From the IMG/VR virus record IMGVR_UViG_3300044733_004146: a DNA stretch of 20,000 nt; one strand, written 5' to 3'. Shown here in pieces: positions 2,302 to 19,531 of the stretch. The stretch is from an uncultured virus (IMG/VR IMGVR_UViG_3300044733_004146) (Duplodnaviria; Heunggongvirae; Uroviricota; Caudoviricetes). Each line of letters starts with the position of its first letter. The first letter of the stretch is position 1. A model generated the notes under the pieces. That model was not told where the DNA came from. It saw nothing but the letters and a program-made list of their open reading frames with translations, and did not search any database. Position numbers and translations under genes: made by a program.

Positions 2302-3243
2302 CTATTGCTTTTTTGCGACGAACGCTGCCACTTTGGCTGCCATCTCGTCCACTGTTGTGGCCGCAATGATGATGTCCAGCTCAGCTCGCATATCGGCCTT
2401 AGTAATGCGAATTTGCTGGTCCTTCGCCCAGAGGGTGACCATGGCAGAAACAACATTGCCAAAATGCTGCCAGCTCTTGATTTCCGTGGCGCGGGTCATG
2501 CCAAGTGTGTCAAGGGCAGCTTTGCCAGCAGTGAGGCTGCGCTGTTCATCTTGGTAGCCCAGCGGATCGGCTTTGCAGAAGCTTGTCAGGGCCTCTTTGG
2601 CATCGAAAGCGGCGGCAGGAGCTGCCTCTGCTCCAGCATCAGCAGCATCTGCTGCAACTGGCGCTTCCTTCTTGCTTCCCCGCGTTGCAGGCTTCGGAGT
2701 TTCCTGTTGGAGCGCGAGTTTGGTCGTTGCTTTTTCATCTTCCTTGGGAATGTCCTCGCCTGCATAAAGACGCAGGCCGAGGCCAGTGAAGGTGGCAATA
2801 CACTTAACGGCAGCACGCTGGCAGTTGTCGCTGATAGCGCGACCATCAAGCTGTTGGATGGCATTGTGCTTGCGGTCCATCACGGGAAAGATCAGCGCCA
2901 CTGTGCGCTTGATGCCGTCCGTCAAATAAGGGCGCAGATAATAGTAGCCAGGTCCGCCAAACACCACTTCGCCAATGGTCTTTTCTTCAAAAGCCACGAA
3001 GAGGGCGGGGAAATGCTCCTTGAGGTAGCGGTAGGCAAATGGCCACGACAGATAGGACAGGCCCTTGTAATCCTTTTCGATGTGGGGGCCAATGTCAGGG
3101 GTGTCGTAAGCCTTCTTGAATTCACCAGCAGTGATTTCCAGAGGGGCGAACACACCGTTGTAGCGATCCATCATTGCTTGTTTGGAAAAGTCGTCCATTT
3201 GGGAAAAGTCGGAAGGAGAATAAAGCGTAAAGGAACTGGTCAT
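2302..3243 (-). CDS. single-strand annealing protein, DUF1071/Sak3-like (Rad52 superfamily)
   Basis: YLSWPFAYRYLKEHFP, PVMDRKHNAI and QRAAVKCIA..GLGLRLYAGEDIP motifs, followed by an Ala/Pro linker and a C-terminal extension. Confidence 0.85.
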   Translation of the reverse strand: MTSSFTLYSPSDFSQMDDFSKQAMMDRYNGVFAPLEITAGEFKKAYDTPDIGPHIEKDYKGLSYLSWPFAYRYLKEHFPALFVAFEEKTIGEVVFGGPGYYYLRPYLTDGIKRTVALIFPVMDRKHNAIQQLDGRAISDNCQRAAVKCIATFTGLGLRLYAGEDIPKEDEKATTKLALQQETPKPATRGSKKEAPVAADAADAGAEAAPAAAFDAKEALTSFCKADPLGYQDEQRSLTAGKAALDTLGMTRATEIKSWQHFGNVVSAMVTLWAKDQQIRITKADMRAELDIIIAATTVDEMAAKVAAFVAKKQ

Positions 3244-3500
3244 TCGTAAATAGTGCGTTTCTCTTTGGCGTCATCGCCATAGAACAGGACAAACTTCTGT
3301 TCTATTTCTTCGTTGGGGAAAACGAGAGAGCATCCTGGCAAAGGCCAATCCGGCACCACGCGAACATCATTAATGGGCTCTTCGTAGTCGGGGTTGTAGC
3401 CCTCTTCAAAGCAACCAAGCTCCCAAACTAGTTTGACTTCTCCATCGCCATGGGAAATCAAAAACTGTTCGGCTGCGTTTTTAAGCTGAGAAACTTTCAT
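3240..3500 (-). CDS. hypothetical protein (MKVSQLKNAAEQF...)
   Basis: ATG at 3500 overlaps the end of the upstream ORF; the stop overlaps the annealase start (ATGA). Confidence 0.65.
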   Translation of the reverse strand: MKVSQLKNAAEQFLISHGDGEVKLVWELGCFEEGYNPDYEEPINDVRVVPDWPLPGCSLVFPNEEIEQKFVLFYGDDAKEKRTIYE

Positions 3501-3901: not shown

Positions 3902-5866
3902 ATGGCATTTTCTATTCTGGAGCACCTCGGCAAACTGGAGCCCAGCGATCACGCAGGCAAATATATCTGCCCAGCATGCGACGGAAACGACTTTTCCGTC
4001 AACGAAGAAACCGGCGCATACAACTGTTTCAACGACACCTCTGCCAAACATCGCGCTGAAATACGCAACGCCATCGCGCCATTAGAACGATGGGAGCGTC
4101 CGCAGCGCCCCTATCAAAGATATACTTTTCCCTACGCAAACCGTGACGGCGCAACGGTTCTGGAGGTGGTGCGCGACGATTCGTCGGGCAAGAAAAGCAT
4201 TCGCCAGCAATATCCAACCATTCCCTCTGATGTACAAAAACGCAAGAAAGTAATTGATGAAATTAGAACAAACATACTGCCCTATCGCTATCAAGAAGCC
4301 CTTGATTTTTCTAAGGCAAATAGTCTTCCAATCTTTGTTGTTGAAGGCGAATTGTGTTGTGACAGGCTTTGGGAAGTAGGGCTTCCTGCTGTTACTTTTC
4401 TTGGTGGCAGTGGGCAATATCGAAGCAACGGTGACTATTCTTTACTGTTTCGCCAGCACCAATTAGTTCTTTGCCCAGATCGTGATGAGCCTGGCGTTGC
4501 GCTCATGCGCGAAGTGGCGGCTGATAATCCTGGCTCACAGTGGCTCTATGCGGAGCCGGACAGTTTTGAATGGGAAAGCCTGCCACAAAACGGCGGCTAT
4601 GACATGGCCGATTGGTTGGATGACGGTGCCGACCAAGAACTGATTCTTGCCTCCATCGTCTTTAAAGACCGGCACGAAGGCCGCGACGGGCGGCCCTCTT
4701 TTGAGGAGATTATCGCCACATTTGAACGCATGGTTGGCCTTTACAACAACGATGCGAGAGTAATTTTTGAAGCGAGAGAGTGGCTAACGCTTCATGAAGT
4801 GAAGATGCCAGCCACGGAAGTGGAGAAGCTCCTGGCTGAAGCAAGGTCTCGCGTGCATGGCCGCGAGGAGATGGAAGTGATGGACGCCAAGACCATCGCC
4901 ATGTCTGAAGATTCTCGCGCTTGGACCATTGCAGGCATCCTGCCGGAGAGCAGCGTCATGCTGCTGGCTGCAGCGCCTGGTAGCGGCAAGAGCACGCTTC
5001 TGTACAACTGGGCATTGCACGTTGCCACTGGCTCTCCATGGAGCCGTCGCCGTTGCAAGAAAGGCAAATCTCTCATCATTCAATGCGACGAGCCAGTGGT
5101 CGATGCTGCAGAAAAGATGCAAATTATTGGCTACGACGACAACGAAAATTTAGACAAGGGCGACATTGGTTTTATTGACCGCTGGCGCTTCAATAACATC
5201 CCTCAGCTTTTGTCTTATATCAAAAAGCATCGCCCGCAGCTCATCATGATTGACAGTCTCACCTCCTGCCTTGCTGGCATGGACGTGGATTTGATTCGCT
5301 CTGACGCTGGTAATTGCATTTACGAACTCCGTGACATTGCCAATGAATATGAATGCAGCATTGTCATCCTTCACCACTTAAACAAAAGTGGTGGCATTCG
5401 TGACAGTTCCAGTTTTGAGGCCAACGTCAGCGAAGTGGTCAAACTGTATCGGCAGGACAACAATTACGACACGACGCAGTTCATCTTTGAATGGACGAAG
5501 AGCCGAAGTGGCCTGGCTGGGAAGCATTTCCTACGGCGAGACCCAGCTACGTATGGTTGGTTTTATGAAGGGCCAGTCAATGGCGGCAGGGATGATCTTG
5601 ATCGTTTGGTGCAGGCCGTTGACACGCAGAACACGCGACGGTTTGACCGCATGGCATTGTCCCGGCACGTAAGCAGCTTTGATAGCAATTTGGCTGGCCG
5701 TCTTGCTGAACAGGCCCGCCGTCAAGGGCTGTTAACTAGCAGCTTTAACGTGGGTCCGAATGGTGAGCGCACCCGCCTCTACCAATCATGGAACTATAAA
5801 GAAGAAGATTTCACTGTTGCCGCTGCTCCTGAACCTATCGTTGAAGACGACGATATCTGGTTCTAG
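3902..5866 (+). CDS. primase-helicase: Zn-finger + TOPRIM + RecA-like AAA_25 ATPase
   Basis: CPACD..C Zn-binding region, VVEGE and CPDRD TOPRIM motifs, Walker A AAPGSGKS, Walker B IMIDS, ILHHLNK, and an acidic tail DDDIWF. Confidence 0.9.
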   Translation: MAFSILEHLGKLEPSDHAGKYICPACDGNDFSVNEETGAYNCFNDTSAKHRAEIRNAIAPLERWERPQRPYQRYTFPYANRDGATVLEVVRDDSSGKKSIRQQYPTIPSDVQKRKKVIDEIRTNILPYRYQEALDFSKANSLPIFVVEGELCCDRLWEVGLPAVTFLGGSGQYRSNGDYSLLFRQHQLVLCPDRDEPGVALMREVAADNPGSQWLYAEPDSFEWESLPQNGGYDMADWLDDGADQELILASIVFKDRHEGRDGRPSFEEIIATFERMVGLYNNDARVIFEAREWLTLHEVKMPATEVEKLLAEARSRVHGREEMEVMDAKTIAMSEDSRAWTIAGILPESSVMLLAAAPGSGKSTLLYNWALHVATGSPWSRRRCKKGKSLIIQCDEPVVDAAEKMQIIGYDDNENLDKGDIGFIDRWRFNNIPQLLSYIKKHRPQLIMIDSLTSCLAGMDVDLIRSDAGNCIYELRDIANEYECSIVILHHLNKSGGIRDSSSFEANVSEVVKLYRQDNNYDTTQFIFEWTKSRSGLAGKHFLRRDPATYGWFYEGPVNGGRDDLDRLVQAVDTQNTRRFDRMALSRHVSSFDSNLAGRLAEQARRQGLLTSSFNVGPNGERTRLYQSWNYKEEDFTVAAAPEPIVEDDDIWF

Positions 5867-5955: not shown

Positions 5956-6114
5956 ATGAAGATTACTTGGAACGATGAGCCAACGGCGCCTGAAGCGCCG
6001 TTTTTTGCTGCACCTCAAGCGGAAGAAGAACTAGAGCCTCTCGATGAAGAGGAAGAGGAGGAAGAGGAGGATTCGCCAGCGTGCTCCTGGCGGGGACAGG
6101 GCTTTGGCTCTTGA
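5956..6114 (+). CDS. 52-aa highly acidic protein (MKITWNDEP...LDEEEEEEEEDS...QGFGS)
   Basis: Hand-translated. GCC-ATG start; the poly-Glu run uses mixed GAA/GAG codons. Confidence 0.6.
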   Translation: MKITWNDEPTAPEAPFFAAPQAEEELEPLDEEEEEEEEDSPACSWRGQGFGS

Positions 6115-6244
6115 GCGTGTGCCATTCTGAGCACTGGCACAATTGCGCTTGGCCGGTGTGCTTATAGTGGTTCCGGAAAGTCCCGCGAGTAACCACTCAC
6201 CAAAGCGAGCTTCTCCAGCCTCCCTGGCCTTCTAGACCAAGCGT

Positions 6245-6362
6245 AGCCCCCAAGGGCGGAGCGCTCCAGACCCAGGCCAAAACTCCCTAAAAACAACGGG
6301 CTAGACGAGGCCATAAACCTCCGCCAGGCCGGTCAAGACATAGTGGAGCCCCCAAGGGCGGA
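6245..6362 (+). repeat. two exact 16-bp copies AGCCCCCAAGGGCGGA (6245-6260, 6347-6362)
   Basis: Read directly in an intergenic region; each copy contains a GCCC-CCAA-GGGC hairpin. Confidence 0.85.
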
Positions 6363-6437
6363 ACGTGCAGGACAAAGGCCAAAGAAGCCTTCAAACAAAA
6401 ATCCTGCTACTAGCATTGCAACGATTAATTCCAAACA

Positions 6438-6671
6438 ATGCTTAACGCTCCGCGCTCTGTTGACCACTTGCCCTTGCTAGTGCATAACGGAGTGGAAATT
6501 CAGCCAATTATTCATTACGGCTTTTCATCGCCTAATAAAGGGCCACGTCCAGCTTCTCGCACTCTCTATGGAGCACGCGATAACAATGGAGAGCGCCATT
6601 GGCGCTCTAGTCTTGACGAAATTCAACAATTAATAGATAAAGGCTTTGCTATTGACAATGCTGAGCAATGA
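6438..6671 (+). CDS. hypothetical protein
   Basis: ORF track; ATG start; the stop overlaps the next ATG. Confidence 0.7.
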   Translation: MLNAPRSVDHLPLLVHNGVEIQPIIHYGFSSPNKGPRPASRTLYGARDNNGERHWRSSLDEIQQLIDKGFAIDNAEQ

Positions 6672-7004: not shown

Positions 7005-7754
7005 ATGGCACGGCCTGAGATTACGTTTGGCAGTCCAGAAGAGGAGCTTGAATATGCTTCCAATGCATTGAAGAAAGCTGGTATTTCTGAAAGCCAGTTT
7101 GAAGCAGTTCGTGACACGCAAGTGCATGGTGGTACTGGTGCAGCAGGCTATAGCAAAGATATGCTTGGCCTTAGGCGATGGATGGTGCAAGAATTATTGG
7201 CGGCGTCAATGAGCAATCGCCAGATTGCGAATGTTCTGAAGCTAAGTAAAGAAACAGTCAATGGTGACAGGAAGTTTAATCGCCTGCTTTATACAGAAGA
7301 AATTTTGAAGAATCAAGACGTGCATCGAGCACGTCTTCTTAAAGAGCAAATGGACCTTAAGGACATGGCCCTACAAAGCTTTGAGAATAGTAAAAAGAAA
7401 CGAATTATTACAATGTCTGACAATAACGGGCAAAGTAATGAAACAGTGAGGCTTGAGGAAACTGCTGGTGATTCAGCATTTTTGACAGTGGCAAAAAATA
7501 GTCTCGTAGAACAGGCCAAGCTATTGGGCCTCCATGAGGCCCGGCCAGCAGAACAGCAAGACACCAGCTACAGAAAATTCCTCCAGGATTTGTCCACAAC
7601 CATTCAAAAAGAAAAAGAATCTAAAGCTACAGAGGAACGCAGGGAGAATGCCCTGCCCGCCAGTGCAGAGGCTATCAGTTTCGACCCATCGCCAGAAAAC
7701 GAGCCATGGCCCGAGACGATGCCTTTACAAACAATTAATGAAGATGACTATTGA
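7005..7754 (+). CDS. HTH DNA-binding protein, possibly terminase small subunit-like
   Basis: HTH MSNRQIANVLKLSKETVNGD, a coiled-coil middle, AKLLGL motif and disordered acidic tail. Confidence 0.55.
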   Translation: MARPEITFGSPEEELEYASNALKKAGISESQFEAVRDTQVHGGTGAAGYSKDMLGLRRWMVQELLAASMSNRQIANVLKLSKETVNGDRKFNRLLYTEEILKNQDVHRARLLKEQMDLKDMALQSFENSKKKRIITMSDNNGQSNETVRLEETAGDSAFLTVAKNSLVEQAKLLGLHEARPAEQQDTSYRKFLQDLSTTIQKEKESKATEERRENALPASAEAISFDPSPENEPWPETMPLQTINEDDY

Positions 7755-12330: not shown

Positions 12331-12385
12331 ATAAGCAGCGCTGATGGCCAAAAGGCTTGACGCTCTGCTCGCTTCCATCTAATTT
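12331..12385 (+). promoter_or_regulatory. LysR-type box + sigma70 promoter
   Basis: ATAAG-CAGCG-CTGAT, an 11-nt gap, then TTGACG-17nt-TAATTT. Confidence 0.75.
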
Positions 12386-12427: not shown

Positions 12428-13429
12428 ATGAGCCACCAATTCACCTCCGGCGCTTTCTTCCACGGCCAAGCCGCCTGGCACAAACTGGGCACTGTCCTCG
12501 ACGGCACCCTCCTCGCCCGTGAAGCTTTCAAAATGGCCAATGCTGATTGGCAAGTGAAAGCCTCGCCCATCTTCACCAGCGACATGCTGGAAATTCCCGG
12601 CCACAAGGCCATCACCCGCGCTGACAACGGCACCGTCCTCTCCATTCAGAAAGACTCCTACAGCATCGTTCAGAACGAACAGCTCATCCGCATTGCAGAG
12701 GCCCTGCACGAAGATGCCACGATGGATGCAGTGGTGGTGCTGGCAGAGGGTCGCCGCGTGGCATTCACTGCAAAGGTGAACAATGCGGAAGGTGAGGTGG
12801 TGAAGGGCGACACTGTTCACCAATATCTCGTTGGCTGCACCAGCCACGACGGCACCGTTGCCTTCCAAGTTATGTTCAGCCCCGTGCGCGTTGTTTGCCA
12901 GAACACGCTCTCGGCTGCCCTTGGTCGTGCTGCTGCTGGTAGCAAGGCGAAGAAATTTGCCATTCGCCACACCACCAACGCCAACACGCTTATCAGCAAG
13001 CTTCCTCAGCTCATCGACATGCAACGCCAGCAGTTCACCGGCGGCATGGAAGAACTGAAGGCCATGGCTAGCAAGCCCTGCACTGCTGCTCAGTTCCGGG
13101 CCTATTGCGAGGAAGTGTTTACTGATCAGCTTGCGGGCATGACCAACGACAAGCGTGGCGACACCACCACCGCCCGCCCCAAGAAGCTGGAAGATCTTGC
13201 TGCATGGGACAGCGTGGCCAACAAATTCGCTGGTGAAGGTATTGGCTTCAACATCCCTGGTGTGGAAGGGACCATGTGGGGCGCCTATCAGGCCATCACG
13301 GAGTATTTCACTCACGATGCAGGCCGCGCTAAGGATTCTACGGAAGCCGCTCGCCAGCGCTTGGAAAGCCTCTACTGGGGTAGTGCTGGCGCCACGATCA
13401 CCCGCGCTCATGCCTTGGCGCTGGCTTGA
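12428..13429 (+). CDS. DUF932 / LGT_TIGR03299 family phage-plasmid protein
   Basis: AWHKLG, ADWQV, YSIVQN, SHDG, PVRVVCQNTL, IRHT and GTMWGAYQAITEY motifs. Confidence 0.9.
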   Translation: MSHQFTSGAFFHGQAAWHKLGTVLDGTLLAREAFKMANADWQVKASPIFTSDMLEIPGHKAITRADNGTVLSIQKDSYSIVQNEQLIRIAEALHEDATMDAVVVLAEGRRVAFTAKVNNAEGEVVKGDTVHQYLVGCTSHDGTVAFQVMFSPVRVVCQNTLSAALGRAAAGSKAKKFAIRHTTNANTLISKLPQLIDMQRQQFTGGMEELKAMASKPCTAAQFRAYCEEVFTDQLAGMTNDKRGDTTTARPKKLEDLAAWDSVANKFAGEGIGFNIPGVEGTMWGAYQAITEYFTHDAGRAKDSTEAARQRLESLYWGSAGATITRAHALALA

Positions 13430-13484
13430 TAAGCCATGCTGATGGTCAGGGGGCTTTACAGCCCCCTTTGTCATGAACTAACTT
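13429..13484 (+). promoter_or_regulatory. LysR-type box + hairpin-embedded -35 promoter
   Basis: ATAAG-CCATG-CTGAT, an 11-nt gap, TTTACA in the loop of GGGGGC/GCCCCC, 18 nt, then TAACTT. Confidence 0.65.
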
Positions 13485-13525
13485 TAGTTTCGTTGAGGGG
13501 CGCGAGTCCCACTGCTCTCCAAGCC

Positions 13526-13900
13526 ATGACCGCCAAAGTCTTCACCGCCTCCTGCCAATGTCCCAATTGCGGCGGCACCGGCAAGCTTCCCCACTACAGC
13601 CACATTGCCAACGGCGACTGCTTCGCCTGCCAGGGCACTGGCACCCTCCAGCTCCGCGACTTCATCGGCTCCAATAAAGACGTTGTGCTGGATGTGGAAA
13701 TGTTTCGTGGCAAGTTCTACCAGGCTTCGCTCCGTTGCCGCACCTGGACTAACGATTCTTCCACTATCAATGGCGTGAAGCAGAACTATCACAACTGGGG
13801 CCGCGATCTGTGGTGCATCCGCATTGATGACGTGGATCAGGCTCGTGCCCTGTGGAAGAAAGCCAAGGCCATGGGCATCCAGGCCACCATCCTGGACTAA
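13526..13900 (+). CDS. DnaJ-like CxxCxGxG zinc-finger protein
   Basis: CPNCGGTG...CFACQGTG; GCC-ATG start at 13526. Confidence 0.8.
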   Translation: MTAKVFTASCQCPNCGGTGKLPHYSHIANGDCFACQGTGTLQLRDFIGSNKDVVLDVEMFRGKFYQASLRCRTWTNDSSTINGVKQNYHNWGRDLWCIRIDDVDQARALWKKAKAMGIQATILD

Positions 13901-13976
13901 TTGTTTCGTTTTATAAACAAGGGGGCGCAAGCCCCCGCTTTCCAGCTAATTTCTATTTCGTACACGCCCTCCTTCC

Positions 13977-14237
13977 ATGACCTCCATCAATATGAGCCAG
14001 CACAGTGGCCCCTCTGGCCGCTTCATCGTCAAAGAAATGCTCCATTTCCAAGACGGCACTGTGGCTGAGCATTGCACCAAAGAAACCACTGCCCTGCTCA
14101 CCAAATTCCACGACCTCCCGCCTGTCAATAACTTCGGCATCTGGGTGGTGCCTGCCTCTGCCTACTACCTCTCCTCCTGGCAAGACATCAACCCCTCCAT
14201 CCGTAACGTCACCTTCGCTTACCGTCGCATCTCCTGA
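13977..14237 (+). CDS. hypothetical protein
   Basis: ORF track; follows a promoter cassette. Confidence 0.7.
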   Translation: MTSINMSQHSGPSGRFIVKEMLHFQDGTVAEHCTKETTALLTKFHDLPPVNNFGIWVVPASAYYLSSWQDINPSIRNVTFAYRRIS

Positions 14238-14239
14238 TC

Positions 14240-14515
14240 ATGCCCGCCTCCATCGTCCCCCACATCCCCACCGTCCATCTCAACGGCACTGGAGCCACAA
14301 CGCTCCGCCTTGAATACGAGAAGCTTTACTACGCAGTGCAGGATGCCATCGACGCACTTAGCGAAGCCACGCTCAATGGCCGCGACTTTTACCCCCAAGG
14401 GCCTGATGCATACTATGAGGCCCGTGATCAACGCAATGAAGCCTTCTCCTGCCTCTATGCCGTTCGCGACTATGCAGGCCGCATCGTTGAAGGCATCGAC
14501 GCCCAAGGAGCATGA
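14240..14515 (+). CDS. hypothetical phage protein (PTVHLNGT...NGRDFYPQG motif)
   Basis: ORF track; fits the operon packing. Confidence 0.75.
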   Translation: MPASIVPHIPTVHLNGTGATTLRLEYEKLYYAVQDAIDALSEATLNGRDFYPQGPDAYYEARDQRNEAFSCLYAVRDYAGRIVEGIDAQGA

Positions 14516-14790
14516 CCATGCAAGCTCATGGCCTTTCCATCAACCAACGCAATCTGTTTTCTTATTTCCTGGCCCATAAGAAACGCCACAAGCACGCTCC
14601 CTGCTTTGTACCTAAGCTTCCCCTAGCAGGCTCCAATCTTCCCCTCTATCTCAATGCCCTAGAGGCTCTAGAAGTCAAGGGGCTCATCAGCGTGGATCGC
14701 TCAGCGCCGCATTACAGGGGCTGGATCATGAACCATGCCAAGGGCGTTTGTGAAGAAACGCAACAAGGCTTGACAGCCTCCTGGAAATGA
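14512..14790 (+). CDS. hypothetical protein, possibly winged-HTH-like
   Basis: LSINQRNLFSYF...LEALEVKGLI pattern; ATGA overlap. Confidence 0.6.
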   Translation: MTMQAHGLSINQRNLFSYFLAHKKRHKHAPCFVPKLPLAGSNLPLYLNALEALEVKGLISVDRSAPHYRGWIMNHAKGVCEETQQGLTASWK

Positions 14791-14798
14791 ACTAATTT
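14770..14798 (+). promoter_or_regulatory. sigma70 promoter
   Basis: TTGACA-17nt-TAATTT. The -10 region CTAATTTCTATTTCGTACA is identical to 13946-13964. Confidence 0.8.
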
Positions 14799-14840
14799 CT
14801 ATTTCGTACAGGGCCGCGAGGCCCGTCCTCCTTCGAAACC

Positions 14841-15143
14841 ATGACTGCTCCCGTTCTCTTCTTCACCCTCGACAGCTTCCGCCCCACTCAAGGCCAGTGG
14901 TGGCGCCACGACACTTCGCGCAACATCGAACGCCGCGTGAAGCTGGTTGCAGCTCACCTTGGCTTCTGGCTCTGGACTGCAGACTTCCGTGATGCCCACT
15001 CTGGCCGCATCATCACGCAGCGCTTCTTCTGCACCAAGACCAGCAGCGAAGAGCCCGTGGCTCTCTTTGAAAGCCCCGATGATCGCCAGCGTTGGATGGA
15101 AAAGCAATGGAAAGCACAGGAGGAGGCCAATGGAAACCGTTAA
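14841..15143 (+). CDS. hypothetical protein
   Basis: ORF track; AAACC-ATG start. Confidence 0.7.
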   Translation: MTAPVLFFTLDSFRPTQGQWWRHDTSRNIERRVKLVAAHLGFWLWTADFRDAHSGRIITQRFFCTKTSSEEPVALFESPDDRQRWMEKQWKAQEEANGNR

Positions 15144-15315
15144 CATCCTCGCAATCAGCAGCAAGGGCCGCAGCCGTATCGGCAAGGCCCTCACCACTGC
15201 CATTGTTGAGCAAAACCATCACGACAAGCTTTTCATTGTCATTCCTGGCATGAATCAATGTCGATGGATAAAGAAAGACAACGACCCTGATTTTCGCATT
15301 GTTTCTGAGGATTGA
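15130..15315 (+). CDS. hypothetical protein (METVNILAISSKGRSRIG...RWIKKDNDPDF)
   Basis: Internal ATG of the track ORF, preceded by GGAGG. Confidence 0.7.
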   Translation: METVNILAISSKGRSRIGKALTTAIVEQNHHDKLFIVIPGMNQCRWIKKDNDPDFRIVSED

Positions 15316-15317
15316 TT

Positions 15318-15623
15318 ATGCATTATGTTTGCAACTACAGCGAAAACGGCCCGTATTGGCCCGCCACACAGGGCCGCTACCAAGCGGCCCGCCTCAAAGA
15401 ACTAATTATGCACGTTCGCGTGTGTATGGAAGATGGGGACTATCAAATAGGCATCTTTGATGAAAACAATGAATGTAAGGGCATGTGGTTAGATGAAGCC
15501 GAACCAGAGCCCGATGGCGAAGGTGGAATGGTTCTGCAAAAGCCTTGCTATGTGCTATATCGGCCTGGCAGCATGAGTGCAGGCATGTGGAACCTTCATC
15601 TTTCTAAATTCAAGAAACGTTAA
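15318..15623 (+). CDS. hypothetical protein
   Basis: ORF track, with ATG at 15318. Confidence 0.7.
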   Translation: MHYVCNYSENGPYWPATQGRYQAARLKELIMHVRVCMEDGDYQIGIFDENNECKGMWLDEAEPEPDGEGGMVLQKPCYVLYRPGSMSAGMWNLHLSKFKKR

Positions 15624-15625
15624 TC

Positions 15626-15784
15626 ATGATTCTCATTGATTTCTTTAGCGAAGATTGCTGCAAAGGCACTGAATTAATCGAAGGGTGGTATTTCTATTCC
15701 GATAGCGATGATTCCATCATTGGGGGACCGTTTGAAAGTGAAGAGGCCGCCATTCAGGCGGCCTTTGATGGCCATGGTTGGTGA
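15626..15784 (+). CDS. 52-aa acidic protein (GWYF...GPFESEEAA motif)
   Basis: Hand-translated; starts 2 nt after the previous stop. Confidence 0.7.
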   Translation: MILIDFFSEDCCKGTELIEGWYFYSDSDDSIIGGPFESEEAAIQAAFDGHGW

Positions 15785-15870
15785 GACCCGGCTGAAAATG
15801 TATAAGACCCGGCTGGCATCGTATAAGACCCGGCTAGGTTCGTATCTAGGGTCCGGCTGGCTGCGTATCA
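15784..15870. repeat. 21-bp tandem repeats (AGACCCGGCT-N5-YGTATA), 3 good plus 1-2 degenerate copies
   Basis: AGACCCGGCT at 15784, 15805 and 15826; CGTAT at 15820, 15841 and 15864. Confidence 0.85.
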
Positions 15871-15902
15871 GGCTCCCTGCCCGATTTTCCCGCCGCCTTG
15901 TT

Positions 15903-15921
15903 GATAATGATTCTCATTTTC
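15903..15921. promoter_or_regulatory. Fur box-like site
   Basis: GATAATGATTCTCATTTTC is a 16/19 match to GATAATGATAATCATTATC. Confidence 0.65.
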
Positions 15922-15926
15922 ACCGG

Positions 15927-15944
15927 GTAGTACATTTGTACTAC
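15927..15944. promoter_or_regulatory. cyanobacterial LexA box-like palindrome
   Basis: GTAGTACATTTGTACTAC; the core AGTACATTTGTACT fits RGTACNNNDGTWCB. Confidence 0.65.
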
Positions 15945-15956
15945 TTTTGGCCATTG

Positions 15957-16070
15957 ATAAGCTGAGCTGATCATTCCGGGCCGATCCATCAGCATCCCTT
16001 ATCATATCAGGCATCCTGATCATTCCCCGGCCCTCCCATCAGCTCCGCTTATCTGATAAGCGCAGTTGAT
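15957..16070. promoter_or_regulatory. array of five LysR-type (T-N11-A) boxes ATMAG-N5-YTKAT
   Basis: Boxes at 15957, 15988, 16006, 16038 and 16056. Confidence 0.7.
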
Positions 16071-16501
16071 GTAAAGAATTGCACGCGATAAAATATTCTC
16101 ATCGTTGCATCTTGCGCCACTAAATGTAGCTAACTGCCACTCGGCAGGATGTAGCCTACTGTTTCGCGCTAAATATAAATATTTCAGAATGTAACGCGAC
16201 GCCGTAGTCTCGCCGGTCTCGTGGTATGGGCGCCAAATGTTGCCAAATGTTGCGCTAGTGGTTGACCGTTCGGGGGGTGCCATGGTATCCGCGCACGCGC
16301 GCGTTCTTTCTTTCTTCTATGGTGCCGATCCTGTAGGTTCCCGGACAACGCACCAACCACACAAACCGCCATAGCCTCCCGGAGATTGTGCCACCTATGG
16401 GAGTGTCCTAACTTCCTGGATTGTGGGCCAGTTTGGGCCCATACTTCTACCAACGGCAAGCGAGGCGACTCGCCAGCCGCCACCCTCCGCAACTTTCACC
16501 C

Positions 16502-16738
16502 ATGGCCTATTCTTTCACCCGCAGCCCGCTAGATGGCTGCTTGATTGTTGACTCTACCGGCACTGTCCTAGATGCTGCTACATGCTATCTGGTGGACGCA
16601 GAAACGATGCCCGATGCAACGTATCGGCAGTTCATAGAAGAAAGTTCAGACGCCGAAACTTTCGCCATGGCGAAACAATGGGGCCGCAAACTTTCTGCAG
16701 TTGTTGTAACGTCCGCCAAACTTCCCGGCGAACGTTGA
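16502..16738 (+). CDS. hypothetical protein (MAYSFTRSPLDG...)
   Basis: Internal ATG of the track ORF, after a promoter and leader hairpin. Confidence 0.7.
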   Translation: MAYSFTRSPLDGCLIVDSTGTVLDAATCYLVDAETMPDATYRQFIEESSDAETFAMAKQWGRKLSAVVVTSAKLPGER

Positions 16739-16787
16739 TTCTTTCTTAGTCTTTCTTTCCTTTCCTTTCCTTTCTTTCCTTTCAACC

Positions 16788-17489
16788 ATGCAACTTTCTG
16801 CCCTTTCCTTTCATCTTTCCGTAAAAAGCAACAATGCTAAGACTGGCCCAATGGCAGTCTCTACATCTTCAAAGTCCACTTGCGCTCCATCGTGTCCTTT
16901 TCTGCCCGAGAATGGCGGGGGATGCTACGCTCAGTCCGGGCCGCTTAATCTACACTGGCTGAAAGTTACAAGCGGCGAACGTGGCACAAACTTTCAAACT
17001 TTCCTCTCAAAGTTAGAAGAACTTCCCGCAGGTTCAGCCTTTCGTCACAATCAGGCGGGGGATCTTCCGCATAATAATGGCAAGATTTCAGAAACTTTCA
17101 TCCGGAAGATGATAAAGGCAGTCTCGCATCTTAAAGCCTACACCTATTCTCACCACAACATCACACTAGGTGAGAATCTTTCCTTAATTAGAAAGGCTAA
17201 CCGTGCGGGCTTCACTATCAACGTGAGCTGCGAAAGTGAAGTACAAGTTGATGCAGCCATTGCGGCAGATCTTCCCGCTGTTGTAGTGGCAAAGTCTGAC
17301 GAACAACGCACACAATGGAGAACAAACGATGGGAACATTGTTCTAGTTTGTCCCGCACAACGTAGTGACACTGTAACCTGCAACGATTGCATGCTATGTC
17401 ACAGACGGGGGAAGAAAGTAGCCATTGCTTTCTTAGCCCACGGCGTTGGTAAGCGTAAAGCTGAAGCGCAACTTTCGGAGGCTCAGTGA
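16788..17489 (+). CDS. Cys-rich Gp88-like phage protein (putative Fe-S/metal-binding)
   Basis: SNNAKTGP, TCAPSCPF..GGCYA, FRHNQAGD, YTYSH, INVSCE, CPAQ..TCNDCMLC and FLAHG motifs. Confidence 0.7.
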   Translation: MQLSALSFHLSVKSNNAKTGPMAVSTSSKSTCAPSCPFLPENGGGCYAQSGPLNLHWLKVTSGERGTNFQTFLSKLEELPAGSAFRHNQAGDLPHNNGKISETFIRKMIKAVSHLKAYTYSHHNITLGENLSLIRKANRAGFTINVSCESEVQVDAAIAADLPAVVVAKSDEQRTQWRTNDGNIVLVCPAQRSDTVTCNDCMLCHRRGKKVAIAFLAHGVGKRKAEAQLSEAQ

Positions 17490-17695
17490 TGATAAAGTTT
17501 GAAACTTTCGCCATAGACGAGTATGGCGTGGGCTATTCTCCCGAGACTTTCTACACTGTAGAAGATGCGGAAAGTTTCATCACAACGCTAGAAGATAGCC
17601 TAGAAGATGCAACAATCAGCCAAGCCCATTCCATCCGCCAAACTATACTAGACCTAGAAGATCAGCTCAGAAACTATAAAGAAACAGCAGACTAG
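17489..17695 (+). CDS. small acidic hypothetical protein
   Basis: TGATG overlap; ORF track. Confidence 0.65.
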   Translation: MIKFETFAIDEYGVGYSPETFYTVEDAESFITTLEDSLEDATISQAHSIRQTILDLEDQLRNYKETAD

Positions 17696-17698
17696 CCT

Positions 17699-17726
17699 AG
17701 GGGCCCCTATAGGGCCCCTTCTTTCT
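17699..17726 (+). terminator. intrinsic terminator
   Basis: GGGGCCC-CTATA-GGGCCCC followed by TTCTTTCT. Confidence 0.7.
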
Positions 17727-18026
17727 GTCTGGCTATCTTCCCCCATAGCCTGCCCATAGGATAGGGTGGCGGGGCTTCTAGGGGGCCATTTCGAGCTGCG
17801 GTGCAATGGGAGGCTGAAAATGGGGAGCATCGCCACATCAGAGAAACACCGACCTGCCAGGTCGGGATTGTTTCAATACGTTACAACTGTTTACCGTGAA
17901 CAGACACGGGCGAGACGCCAGTGTAGGGAGCAGTAGAAAGCCTCCCTACGGTTTTGGGCTCGCGGTACTCCCCGCGAAATGTGGCGCCAATTTTCATCGA
18001 AAATGGCAGGCAATAAGTACAAATAC

Positions 18027-18524
18027 CTACCAATCAATGGAATTAGCAATAGCGCGTCCCACCGCTTCAGTGAGAGTTTTTAATTCTTCATGCGTGGCAT
18101 AACTTTTAAACATATTTGCTTTATGGCTAATTATCCATACATTGCCTTTGACATAGCCACGAGTAGGATCAATGCGATCTAGGGAAGGGCTATTGGGAAG
18201 GGGGAGTCTTTCATTGCCTCGGTAAGCAGACCATTCAAGAGGCATATTGAACACTGGACAACGAGAAACAACCAGGGAACGAACGTAATCAATATCAAGA
18301 TCGAACAAAAGCTTTTTCTTGATAGCTCGATTACGAGCATTAACTAACATTTTTGTAGTTTGCGTTGTAATGGGATTATTTTTTTTGGAATTTACGGCCA
18401 TAGCACTAGAGCATTGCTTGCATTCATAGCTATAGCCATCTTTTTTGCTGCAATTTTTAAAAAAATCGCTTAATGGTTTTACAGTTTTACAAGAGTAGCA
18501 TCGTTTTTCTTGAGAAGAGTCCAT
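18027..18524 (-). CDS. HNH homing-type endonuclease with N-terminal CxxC..CxxC Zn finger
   Basis: KRCYSCK...ECKQC and RCPVF..PSLDRIDPTRGYVKGNVWIISHKAN; visibly more AT-rich than the flanks. Confidence 0.85.
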   Translation of the reverse strand: MDSSQEKRCYSCKTVKPLSDFFKNCSKKDGYSYECKQCSSAMAVNSKKNNPITTQTTKMLVNARNRAIKKKLLFDLDIDYVRSLVVSRCPVFNMPLEWSAYRGNERLPLPNSPSLDRIDPTRGYVKGNVWIISHKANMFKSYATHEELKTLTEAVGRAIANSIDW

Positions 18525-19440: not shown

Positions 19441-19531
19441 AGGAAGTTTTCCATTCCTGCATGGGAAAAATTGGCTAGCCTGCCTGTTGTAAGTTTTGGG
19501 GCCGTAAGGCCCTTTCTTGTCTCTGGAACCA

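Follow-up and report, generated by a model that had tools for sequence, protein, structure and literature searches.

A conserved non-coding hub in an S-CBS4-like cyanosiphovirus, with sites at which host regulators may gate phage promoters

Introduction

Why would a phage keep, within a few hundred non-coding base pairs, sites that resemble the operators of several regulators of its host? The question is raised by positions 15900–16260 of a stretch of 20,000 nucleotides from an uncultured virus of the class Caudoviricetes (IMG/VR record IMGVR_UViG_3300044733_004146). We call this whole stretch the window. A sequence-only reading had noticed boxes there that look like those of Fur, LexA, LysR-type regulators and RpaB (the HLR1 element), and had proposed that they either titrate host regulators or let the phage sense the state of its host, for decisions on DNA entry or the timing of lysis. 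Our analysis suggests that 15900–16260 is the core of a cis-acting transcription-control hub (15785–16501), at which host regulators would gate rightward promoters. We consider this reading somewhat better than an even bet, with a probability of roughly 0.55. Because conserved look-alikes of host-regulator sites stand beside candidate phage promoters, the condition of the host probably determines when the virus expresses a block of genes.

How Synechococcus and Cyanobium cyanophages sense the state of their host is poorly understood, and the hub is a concrete object of 400 bp on which ideas can be tested. Field studies report that cyanophages are induced, or that infection changes, under UV, metals and light. 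In the literature we found no cis-element that links a cyanosiphovirus to host SOS, metal or light regulators, and, at the level of titles and abstracts, no report of a LexA box in a cyanophage. The control logic seems general for a phage group without a cultured member that carries the hub, because at least 41 distinct viral contexts, drawn from many samples, contain these box types.

Results

Boxes in the array

Every element that the sequence-only reading had named lies where it had been placed. The boxes and promoter-like elements are as follows (where no strand is given, none was assigned).

15902–15922: Fur-family (Fur/Zur-type) 7-1-7 box, TGATAAT-G-ATTCTCA; matched in 0/200 and 1/200 shuffles (Fur and Zur consensus)
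15928–15943: LexA (SOS) box, TAGTACATTTGTACTA; exact match to TAGTACA-N2-TGTACTA
15957–15971: dyad B1, ATAAGCTGAGCTGAT; ATMAG-N5-CTKAT match
15988–16002: dyad B2, ATCAGCATCCCTTAT; ATMAG-N5-CTKAT match
16006–16020: dyad B3, ATCAGGCATCCTGAT; ATMAG-N5-CTKAT match
16038–16052: dyad B4, ATCAGCTCCGCTTAT; ATMAG-N5-CTKAT match, centre at about −56 from the predicted P1 start
16056–16070: dyad B5, ATAAGCGCAGTTGAT; the −35 of P1 coincides with its right half
16066–16094, plus strand: P1, predicted sigma-70-like promoter, TTGATG-17-TAAAAT; the only match of a promoter scan of 15500–16900
16178–16195, minus strand: HLR1-like repeat A, GTTACATT-CT-GAAATATT, 13/16; centre at about −50.5 from the predicted P2a start
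16222–16230, plus strand: P2a, predicted −10-like element TG-n-TATGGG; a repeated, conserved element and a poor −10
16236–16253, minus strand: HLR1-like repeat B, AATGTTGC-CA-AATGTTGC on the plus strand; 12/16 to HLR1 on the minus strand
16262–16291, plus strand: P2b, TTGACC, 18-nt spacer, TG-n-TATCCG; read from the alignment
12331–12345: extra dyad; a promoter-like site, TTGACG-17-TAATTT, follows 12 bp downstream, ahead of the DUF932 gene
13429–13443: extra dyad at the DUF932 stop codon, followed by a hairpin and a T run

The relatives used below come from a search with the DUF7227 protein encoded next to the array. It returned 23 viral contigs (L001–L023), 17 of which were compared with the window; L001–L003 are identical to the window, and L014, L017 and L021 duplicate L013, L016 and L019. 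Longer records carry the prefix G. Among them G007 is a complete relative of 68.5 kb that is 92–95% identical over most of the window.

The palindrome that had been likened to the cyanobacterial LexA box agrees exactly with TAGTACA-N2-TGTACTA, the Prochlorococcus LexA consensus upstream of recA, umuCD and lexA (PMC2921402). It also fits AGTACWNWTGTACT, which another study gives as the general cyanobacterial LexA consensus (PMC3091678). None of 200 shuffles contained an exact match to the consensus, and the box is the sole match in the window even at up to three mismatches. In 14 of the 18 compared sequences the hub carries one to three LexA-like boxes (TAGTAC-N4-GTACTA, at most two mismatches). 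Their half-sites are fixed while the 4-nt spacer varies (ATTT, AAAT, GTTT, AGGC, ATGC, AAGC, ACTT), and this invariance holds across lineages whose neighbouring protein is down to 67% identical; the form of the dyads varies. Across 17 sequences there are 17 LexA-like matches in 21.6 kb of hub DNA versus three in 113.6 kb elsewhere, and all three have two mismatches and lie inside open reading frames (ORFs).

The box was sought in eight records related to the window (G001–G007 and G009), two of which are complete (68.5 and 74 kb). It is confined to the hub in all six that carry it; G003 and G005 have none. Two records from a wider scan, G008 and G010, have the box at one site only, and G011 has two clusters. 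Because no LexA-like, S24 or XRE-type protein was found above threshold in G007 (100 of 103 ORFs scanned), and none in G001–G005, host LexA would be the most economical binder of the SOS box.

For the adjoining box, read earlier as a Fur box at 15903–15921 with 16 of 19 positions, the site stands and the specific name is less secure. The classical Fur 19-mer consensus has its sole match there, with three mismatches on the plus strand and two on the minus strand (17/19), and matched in 0 of 200 shuffles. A picocyanobacterial Fur consensus was not found in the literature. The RegPrecise cyanobacterial Zur consensus, as given in PMC9337993, fits 15902–15922 with a single mismatch (15 of 16 specified positions) and was matched at up to two mismatches in one of 200 shuffles. 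Since it fits equally well, "Fur-family box" is the safe name, and the presumed Fur may be Zur. The box is kept in L004–L007, where the lone change, in L006, makes the palindrome perfect. Variants occur in L015 and L023; L010–L012 and L019 have none.

The five ATMAG-N5-YTKAT boxes reported between 15957 and 16070 are all present. The narrower pattern ATMAG-N5-CTKAT occurs six times in the window versus 0.04 expected, a count reached by none of 200 shuffles. Four of these lie in the array (15957, 15988, 16006, 16038) and two at 12331 and 13429; B5 carries TTGAT, which fits the Y of the wider pattern and not the narrower one. Over the same 17 sequences, 38 dyads fall in the hubs (21.6 kb) and seven elsewhere (113.6 kb). 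The logo of 78 distinct boxes reads g-ATAAGC-NNN-GCTTAT-c. We found no published motif that matches it, and the dyad is a well-defined orphan operator.

The nearest promoter had been placed about 180 bp downstream of the array. This was wrong: promoter-like elements lie inside it, and P1 (16066–16094) is the best predicted promoter candidate of the hub. Its −10 is kept as TAAAAT or TAAAGT in L004–L007, L010–L012 and L019, and 16067–16106 is 82.5% identical to L010 by blastn. A predicted start near 16101 puts B5 at about −38 and B4 at about −56, and the centre of the dyad at 12331–12345 lies at about −54 from the predicted start of the promoter-like site before DUF932. Because of these positions, the protein that would bind the dyads looks like a promoter-proximal activator or repressor with several phage targets. 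At LysR-type operators a recognition site near −65 is paired with an activation site near −35 of the target promoter, and the dyad positions would suit a LysR-type protein. Naming the dyads after LysR-type CbbR or RbcR went too far: all five fit T-N11-A in an interrupted dyad (ATC-N9-GAT type), which is a generic pattern, and a LysR-type regulator gene was found neither in the window nor in G007. Nor did we find a known regulator of this type (CbbR/RbcR, NdhR, CmpR) with the specificity of the dyads.

HLR1 was defined as two (G/T)TTACA(T/A)(T/A) octamers 2 nt apart. Repeat A (16178–16195) reads as it had been written, and it falls within a conserved alignment block. Its score is unremarkable, since the window holds 12 matches at the 13/16 level versus 2.77 expected, and the score alone does not single it out. 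The 10-bp direct repeat, AAATGTTGC at 16235 and again at 16245, is an exact tandem repeat. Repeat B has its centre at about −53.5 from the predicted P2b start and is kept in 13 of 15 aligned relatives. Hence, the HLR1-like repeats of the hub are weak by score and conserved in position. Activation by RpaB peaks with HLR1 near −51 on either strand, and −5 is a repressing position (PMC6525291). The hub has two tandem modules, each with an HLR1-like repeat and a TG-n-TAT element 26–29 nt further on; the predicted starts of P2a and P2b are near 16237 and 16298. At P2b, a TTGAC or TTGAT followed by TATNNN at 17–18-nt spacing is found in about 13 of 15 rows of the alignment; L011 and L012 align differently.

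Conservation in relatives and across viral genomes

The boxes are kept while the spacers drift. Between the window and L004–L007, one of 120 box-specified positions varies versus 16 of 180 others (Fisher p=0.002), and within 15896–16074 one of 67 versus 12 of 112 (p=0.03), with box masks that were drawn after the sequences had been seen. Relatives down to 67% protein identity have the same box types in the same order, and in diverged relatives two to ten dyads follow the LexA-like box. The most distant contig, L023 (67% protein identity), shows iterons, a Fur-like box, octamers, LexA-like boxes and dyads in the same order. Its octamers, GT(T/A)ACATT, form a tandem array of four with a spacing of 10 bp, and it has three of the LexA-like boxes and ten of the dyads. 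The two computational checks that the sequence-only reading had proposed, shuffled controls and comparison with relatives, thus both came out in favour of the LexA, Fur-type and dyad boxes, with 0 of 200 shuffles for LexA, Fur and six dyads and one of 200 for Zur.

The box types also recur in other phage groups. A scan of all IMG/VR for a LexA-like box with a dyad within the next 30 nt gave 52 stretches in 41 distinct contexts, where by a rough estimate about one would be expected by chance; L075 looks like such a chance match inside a gene. Many of the matches are new lineages with the same layout, in which iterons are followed, in this order, by a second LexA-like box in some cases, TGAAAATGAGAATCATTCTCAA, the LexA box and dyads. 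Other flanks are seen in a second group (L091, L094, L098, L102, L107, L125) and in an AT-rich group (L097, L104, L109). Of 12 annotated loci, 8 have a GP88/DUF7227-family gene at a distance of at most about 1.1 kb, and 2 have a DUF7178 gene. Two motifs for which the scan did not select are found repeatedly in the vicinity. Fur-like boxes occur in 15 of the 41 independent contexts, always 16–58 bp upstream of the LexA box, at densities of 1.06 per kb near the hubs versus 0.076 per kb far from them. HLR1 with at most two mismatches is found in 10 of the 41 (0.71 near versus 0.26 far per kb), with 16/16 in L093 and 15/16 in L097, L102 and L109.

Among the closer relatives some hubs are built differently. 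L008 has about 35 tandem copies of an 8-bp CATATNNN unit at 2990–3330 in place of the Fur/LexA cassette, and L018 and L022 have repeated AT-rich ATAAAGAATTAATTGCAC units instead. An ORF resembling an HNH/AP2-type homing endonuclease sits at the hub edge, between the 52-aa ORF and the iterons, in L013, L018 and L022; L089 and L099 likewise have a homing-endonuclease-like ORF at the hub edge, with HNH_3 matches.

Extent of the hub and its other elements

The full non-coding hub spans 15785–16501 (717 bp), with early replication and recombination genes on its left and the 78-aa ORF, DUF7227 and ribonucleotide reductase block on its right. That the stretch is non-coding holds: the ORFs that overlap it have no Pfam or PHROG match and, with no protein-level conservation, are not kept in diverged relatives. 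The iterons, P1, a second repeat family, the P2 modules, a conserved leader and the two extra dyads at 12331 and 13429 had escaped the sequence-only reading, and the iterons lie outside the coordinates it had given. The remaining features of the region are listed here.

15784–15876: four direct repeats (iterons) of 21–23 bp, AGACCCGGCTG-N5-GTATA type; they follow immediately on the stop codon of the 52-aa ORF
16120–16161: second family of direct repeats, CTAAATGTAGCYWACTG type, with a unit length of about 24 bp; 2 to at least 6 copies in relatives
16290–16303, plus strand: GC hairpin then T-rich run, terminator-like or attenuator-like; pairs kept in 12–15 of 15 sequences
16304–16501, plus strand: conserved 5′ leader (blastn and alignment conservation), with a hairpin at 16454–16479
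16502–16738, plus strand: 78-aa ORF, the first downstream gene; 41–54% amino-acid identity in L010, L012, L013 and L018
16788–17489, plus strand: DUF7227 gene, with a (CTTTC)7 tract before it at 16750–16783

Iteron periods are 21 (3.0 copies) and 23 (3.1 copies). The core CCGGCT(G/A)G...GTAT is present in three to five copies in the relatives read, the whole block is 100% identical in the window and L004–L007, and GACCCGGCTRG has no other occurrence in the 40-kb record G001. The second repeat family is seen in L006, L010, L011, L019 and L022, and a lake contig has a copy-number variant of it. In all, the hub has three repeat families of variable copy number. The 52-aa ORF lies upstream in all but the most distant contig, at 0.9–2.2 kb from the DUF7227 homologue.

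The right part, 16206–16504, is the conserved leader region. Its hairpin at 16454–16479 shows compensatory changes in four to five of 15 relatives (alignment pairs 198–209, 200–207 and 201–206), and TCCCGGA/TCCTGGA repeats at about 16377–16430 could also pair. A mosaic breakpoint lies inside the hub at window position 16233 (G007 position 30814). To its right, a 555-aa GP88-family ORF in G007 replaces P2b, the leader, the 78-aa ORF and DUF7227. G007 keeps one HLR1-like/CATGGTA module, a few tens of bases before its next ORF.

Several other roles were considered and set aside. Minus-strand ORFs at 16184–16492 and 16020–16283 would encode arginine-rich products without a family, and conservation there is at the DNA level only. 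In one frame the 21-bp iterons could be read as a coding repeat of seven residues, and relatives space them at 22, 23 or 27–40 bp. As regards an attP or a packaging site, the integrase of G001 lies about 26 kb away, and the large terminase gene about 7 kb away on the opposite strand. Contigs of four runs over 13500–18500, which cannot reveal transcripts, span the hub without consistent ends or joints, and there is therefore no sign of a genome terminus or integration junction.

Phage, neighbouring genes and host

The phage is a freshwater S-CBS4-like cyanosiphovirus. The window encodes an exonuclease (558–1385) and a Sak-type annealing protein (2302–3243) on the minus strand. On the plus strand follow a primase-helicase (3902–5866), many small ORFs and DUF932 (12428–13429) and, near the hub, the 52-aa ORF (15626–15784), the 78-aa ORF (16502–16738), DUF7227 (16788–17489) and a ribonucleotide reductase that starts at 19517. 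Among 50,697 phage records the sole DNA match of the whole window is the Sak gene of Synechococcus phage S-CBS4 (81.6%), and the hub DNA has no match in them. The nearest record, G001 (40 kb, 56% complete), adds an integrase, tail-fibre genes, an endolysin, thymidylate synthase, dCTP deaminase, the small subunit of ribonucleotide reductase, the large terminase and the portal. An ORF with a CP12 domain, of a kind typical of cyanophages, is present in G007. The 24 runs that contain the stretch are all lake-water metagenomes, with no RNA runs listed among them. Because of the S-CBS4 Sak match, the CP12-domain ORF and the lake-water runs, the host is most likely a freshwater picocyanobacterium.

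The integrase of G001 (PHROG 1, E 4.5e-42) lies among tail-fibre genes at window-relative −10747..−9893. Since no integrase family was matched in the complete and 92–95% identical G007, integration ability seems to be an accessory trait. Lysogeny is uncertain, and a DUF7227 profile run against 185,579 species genomes revealed no cyanobacterial prophage.

Rfam (E up to 1) and transfer RNA scans of the window gave nothing, and PDB sequence searches and NCBIfam gave no function for the neighbouring proteins. An early protein encoded at 7005–7754 has a weak GerE-type helix-turn-helix. The structure model of DUF7227 (predicted local distance difference test 94.7) has a TIM-barrel-like fold in which cysteines C32, C36, C46, C188, C198, C201 and C204 are nearly invariant; the Foldseek matches are weak (best E 4e-3) and all enzymes, a radical-SAM maturase among them. 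The (CTTTC)7 pyrimidine tract stops 5 nt ahead of the DUF7227 start codon and is unique in the window. In every relative read such a tract precedes the homologous gene and small ORFs inserted there, and it may be a translation or RNA-binding signal. The stretch at 16303–16318 belongs to the same observation. Another apparently non-coding stretch, 6100–6440, repeats the motif CCCCCAAGGGCGGA(G/A)CG at about 6247 and 6350. Between 10000 and 17000 the plus-strand genes have a strongly negative GC skew (down to −0.29), unlike the remainder of the genome, and strongly negative skew is also found upstream of the hub in relatives.

Discussion

How could the hub work? Binding and transcription are what we infer throughout from the layout of the sites. 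A dimeric factor, either phage-coded or a LysR-like protein of the host, would bind the dyads at about −38, about −56 and further upstream, and in this way set the activity of P1. Host LexA would occupy the SOS box, and a host Fur-family protein (Fur or Zur) the adjoining 7-1-7 box. These two could act from upstream (122 bp here, 13 bp in L010) or on an overlapping weak promoter; either P1 or that weak promoter would then answer to DNA damage and metal status. P2a and P2b, each with an HLR1-like repeat about 50–53 bp upstream of its predicted start, would have this repeat in the activating position of RpaB. All promoters would feed the conserved structured leader and the genes downstream (78-aa ORF, DUF7227, ribonucleotide reductase), and the iterons on the left would be an element separate from the control hub.

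Several points weigh against such a hub. The identity of the host comes from phage and sample context. In four of 18 relatives (L008, L013, L018, L022) other repeat arrays replace the LexA/dyad cassette, and hence the LexA/dyad inputs are not essential to the hub. Because 122 bp separate the LexA and Fur-type boxes from the P1 −35 further downstream (13 bp in L010), they do not overlap a convincing core promoter, and the candidate promoters that do overlap them are weak. The "−10" hexamers of P2a and P2b (TATGGG, TATCCG) lack the usual final T. HLR1-like matches are enriched just 2.6- to 2.7-fold near hubs, and the hub's own repeats agree at 13 and 12 of 16 positions. Some phage groups have three to five consecutive LexA-like boxes, a pattern that resembles the operators of a phage repressor more closely. 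Finally, counts across relatives are not independent events, because the relatives share ancestry.

The repeats invite the alternative that the locus is a replication origin, at which iterons, second repeats and dyads bind a phage initiator (e.g., the primase-helicase at 3902–5866) together with host factors, and LexA and Fur-type proteins modulate initiation, not transcription. Here four direct repeats are phased at 21–23 bp, so at least three phased repeats of about 20 bp are present, and their core is conserved in all relatives read and unique in the 40-kb G001. The copy number of all three repeat families varies, and long AT-rich or 8-bp repeat blocks stand beside the iterons in L018, L022 and L008. 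The cumulative GC-skew minimum falls about 0.4–2.5 kb from the hub in seven of seven records and is the global minimum in two complete genomes. This minimum is, however, offset from the hub, could reflect the composition of a shared gene block and was found in mutually related records. The hub of this phage has no unwinding element, with the 12 least stable 40-bp and 80-bp windows of the 20 kb all outside 15785–16500, and DnaA boxes and GATC sites are at chance level. DUF7227 is modelled as a TIM-barrel-like enzyme fold, not as a DNA-binding initiator, and another phage group (L098, L102, L107) carries the LexA/HLR1/dyad module without visible iterons. An origin role is plausible for the iterons; overall we think it rather unlikely. 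One could also argue that the sites are operators of phage-encoded regulators only, and that they resemble host LexA and Fur sites through mimicry or by coincidence. The arrays of three to five LexA-like boxes and up to ten dyads in some relatives are like phage operator sets, dyads also flank another phage gene (DUF932), the cassette is swapped in four of 18 relatives as in heteroimmune phages, and the early protein at 7005–7754 with its weak GerE-type helix-turn-helix is at hand. Nevertheless, the exact LexA match is to a consensus taken from host SOS genes. The LexA half-sites are invariant down to 67% identity of the neighbouring protein while the dyads vary, no LexA-like, S24 or XRE-type repressor lies above threshold in G007, and the cyanobacteria-specific HLR1 motif is found repeatedly next to the boxes. 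Operators of the phage's own are possible, above all for the dyads, and unlikely as an account of all boxes.

The decoy half of the earlier proposal, in which an array without a cis target titrates LexA, Fur/Zur, RpaB and a LysR-type protein until host regulons are de-repressed, fared worse than its other half. In the laboratory, multicopy Fur boxes are well known to titrate Fur. Clustered sites that look like high-affinity ones would multiply with the phage DNA, and in some lineages the boxes are multiplied (three LexA-like boxes, ten dyads and four HLR1-type half-sites in L023). Yet each genome of this phage contains a single LexA box and a single Fur-type box, and the order and spacing of the boxes relative to promoter-like elements are constant. 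A sponge is unsupported because the module is single-copy, one dyad forms a conserved −35 and another lies about 54 bp upstream of a second predicted start; cis-regulation explains everything that it explains, and it is without support of its own. We regard it as highly improbable. A combined scenario is very unlikely as well: a picocyanobacterial siphovirus without its own repressor would read LexA (DNA damage), Fur/Zur (metals) and RpaB (light/redox) simultaneously, either to time the onset of its nucleotide-metabolism and late programme or as a cue for ending a carrier or lysogenic state, and its boxes would also drain these regulators. If it were true, multiplying phage DNA would re-programme the SOS, metal and high-light regulons of the host by draining LexA, Fur/Zur and RpaB. 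Sensing of the host state by a cis-acting control hub is the best reading, because the boxes are not due to chance, are conserved and recur, and because the LexA box matches the published host consensus exactly.

Comparison with known systems

Iteron-type origins are known from lambda ori, P1 oriR and the plasmids pSC101 and R6K. The hub shares with them direct repeats of about 20 bp, three to five in number, that recur about every 22 bp beside other protein-binding sites. It differs from them in that this phage lacks an AT-rich unwinding element, an excess of DnaA boxes and an adjacent initiator gene. Among cyanophages, PhoB controls the phage pstS gene, and NtcA sites occur in T4-like cyanophages. 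As in these cases, a cyanophage would couple its genes to host physiology via host transcription factors. Unlike them, with a single factor and an auxiliary metabolic gene, the siphovirus hub stacks several types of factor sites in one place.

Phage systems that respond to LexA include CTX-phi and, in coliphage 186 and the Gifsy phages, antirepressors controlled by LexA. In the Bacillus thuringiensis phage GIL01, promoters are reported to be under direct control of host LexA, assisted by a small phage protein (PMC4551915). The hub is similar in having host-type SOS boxes in a phage control region and no detectable self-cleaving repressor of the CI type, and the LexA-assisting protein of GIL01 would parallel the dyad-binding partner proposed here. 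It differs in host phylum and box type, in the joining of the SOS box to Fur-type and HLR1-like elements, and in the position of the box, which here lies 13–122 bp upstream of the nearest clear −35 and not over a promoter.

The closest host counterparts are described in a Synechocystis study, where the isiA promoter combines HLR1 (RpaB) with a Fur box, lexA has an HLR1, and HLR1 motifs are reported in cyanophage genomes (PMC6525291). The hub would use the same set of regulators, with HLR1 near −51, a Fur box and sites on either strand. By that account, isiA and lexA are host genes with mapped starts and demonstrated binding, whereas the starts in the hub are predicted and its repeats deviate from HLR1 at three to four of 16 positions. 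Phage regulatory regions that use host transcription factors are thus known; what is unusual here is that SOS-, metal- and light-type sites are stacked, and that uncultured cyanosiphoviruses conserve the hub widely.

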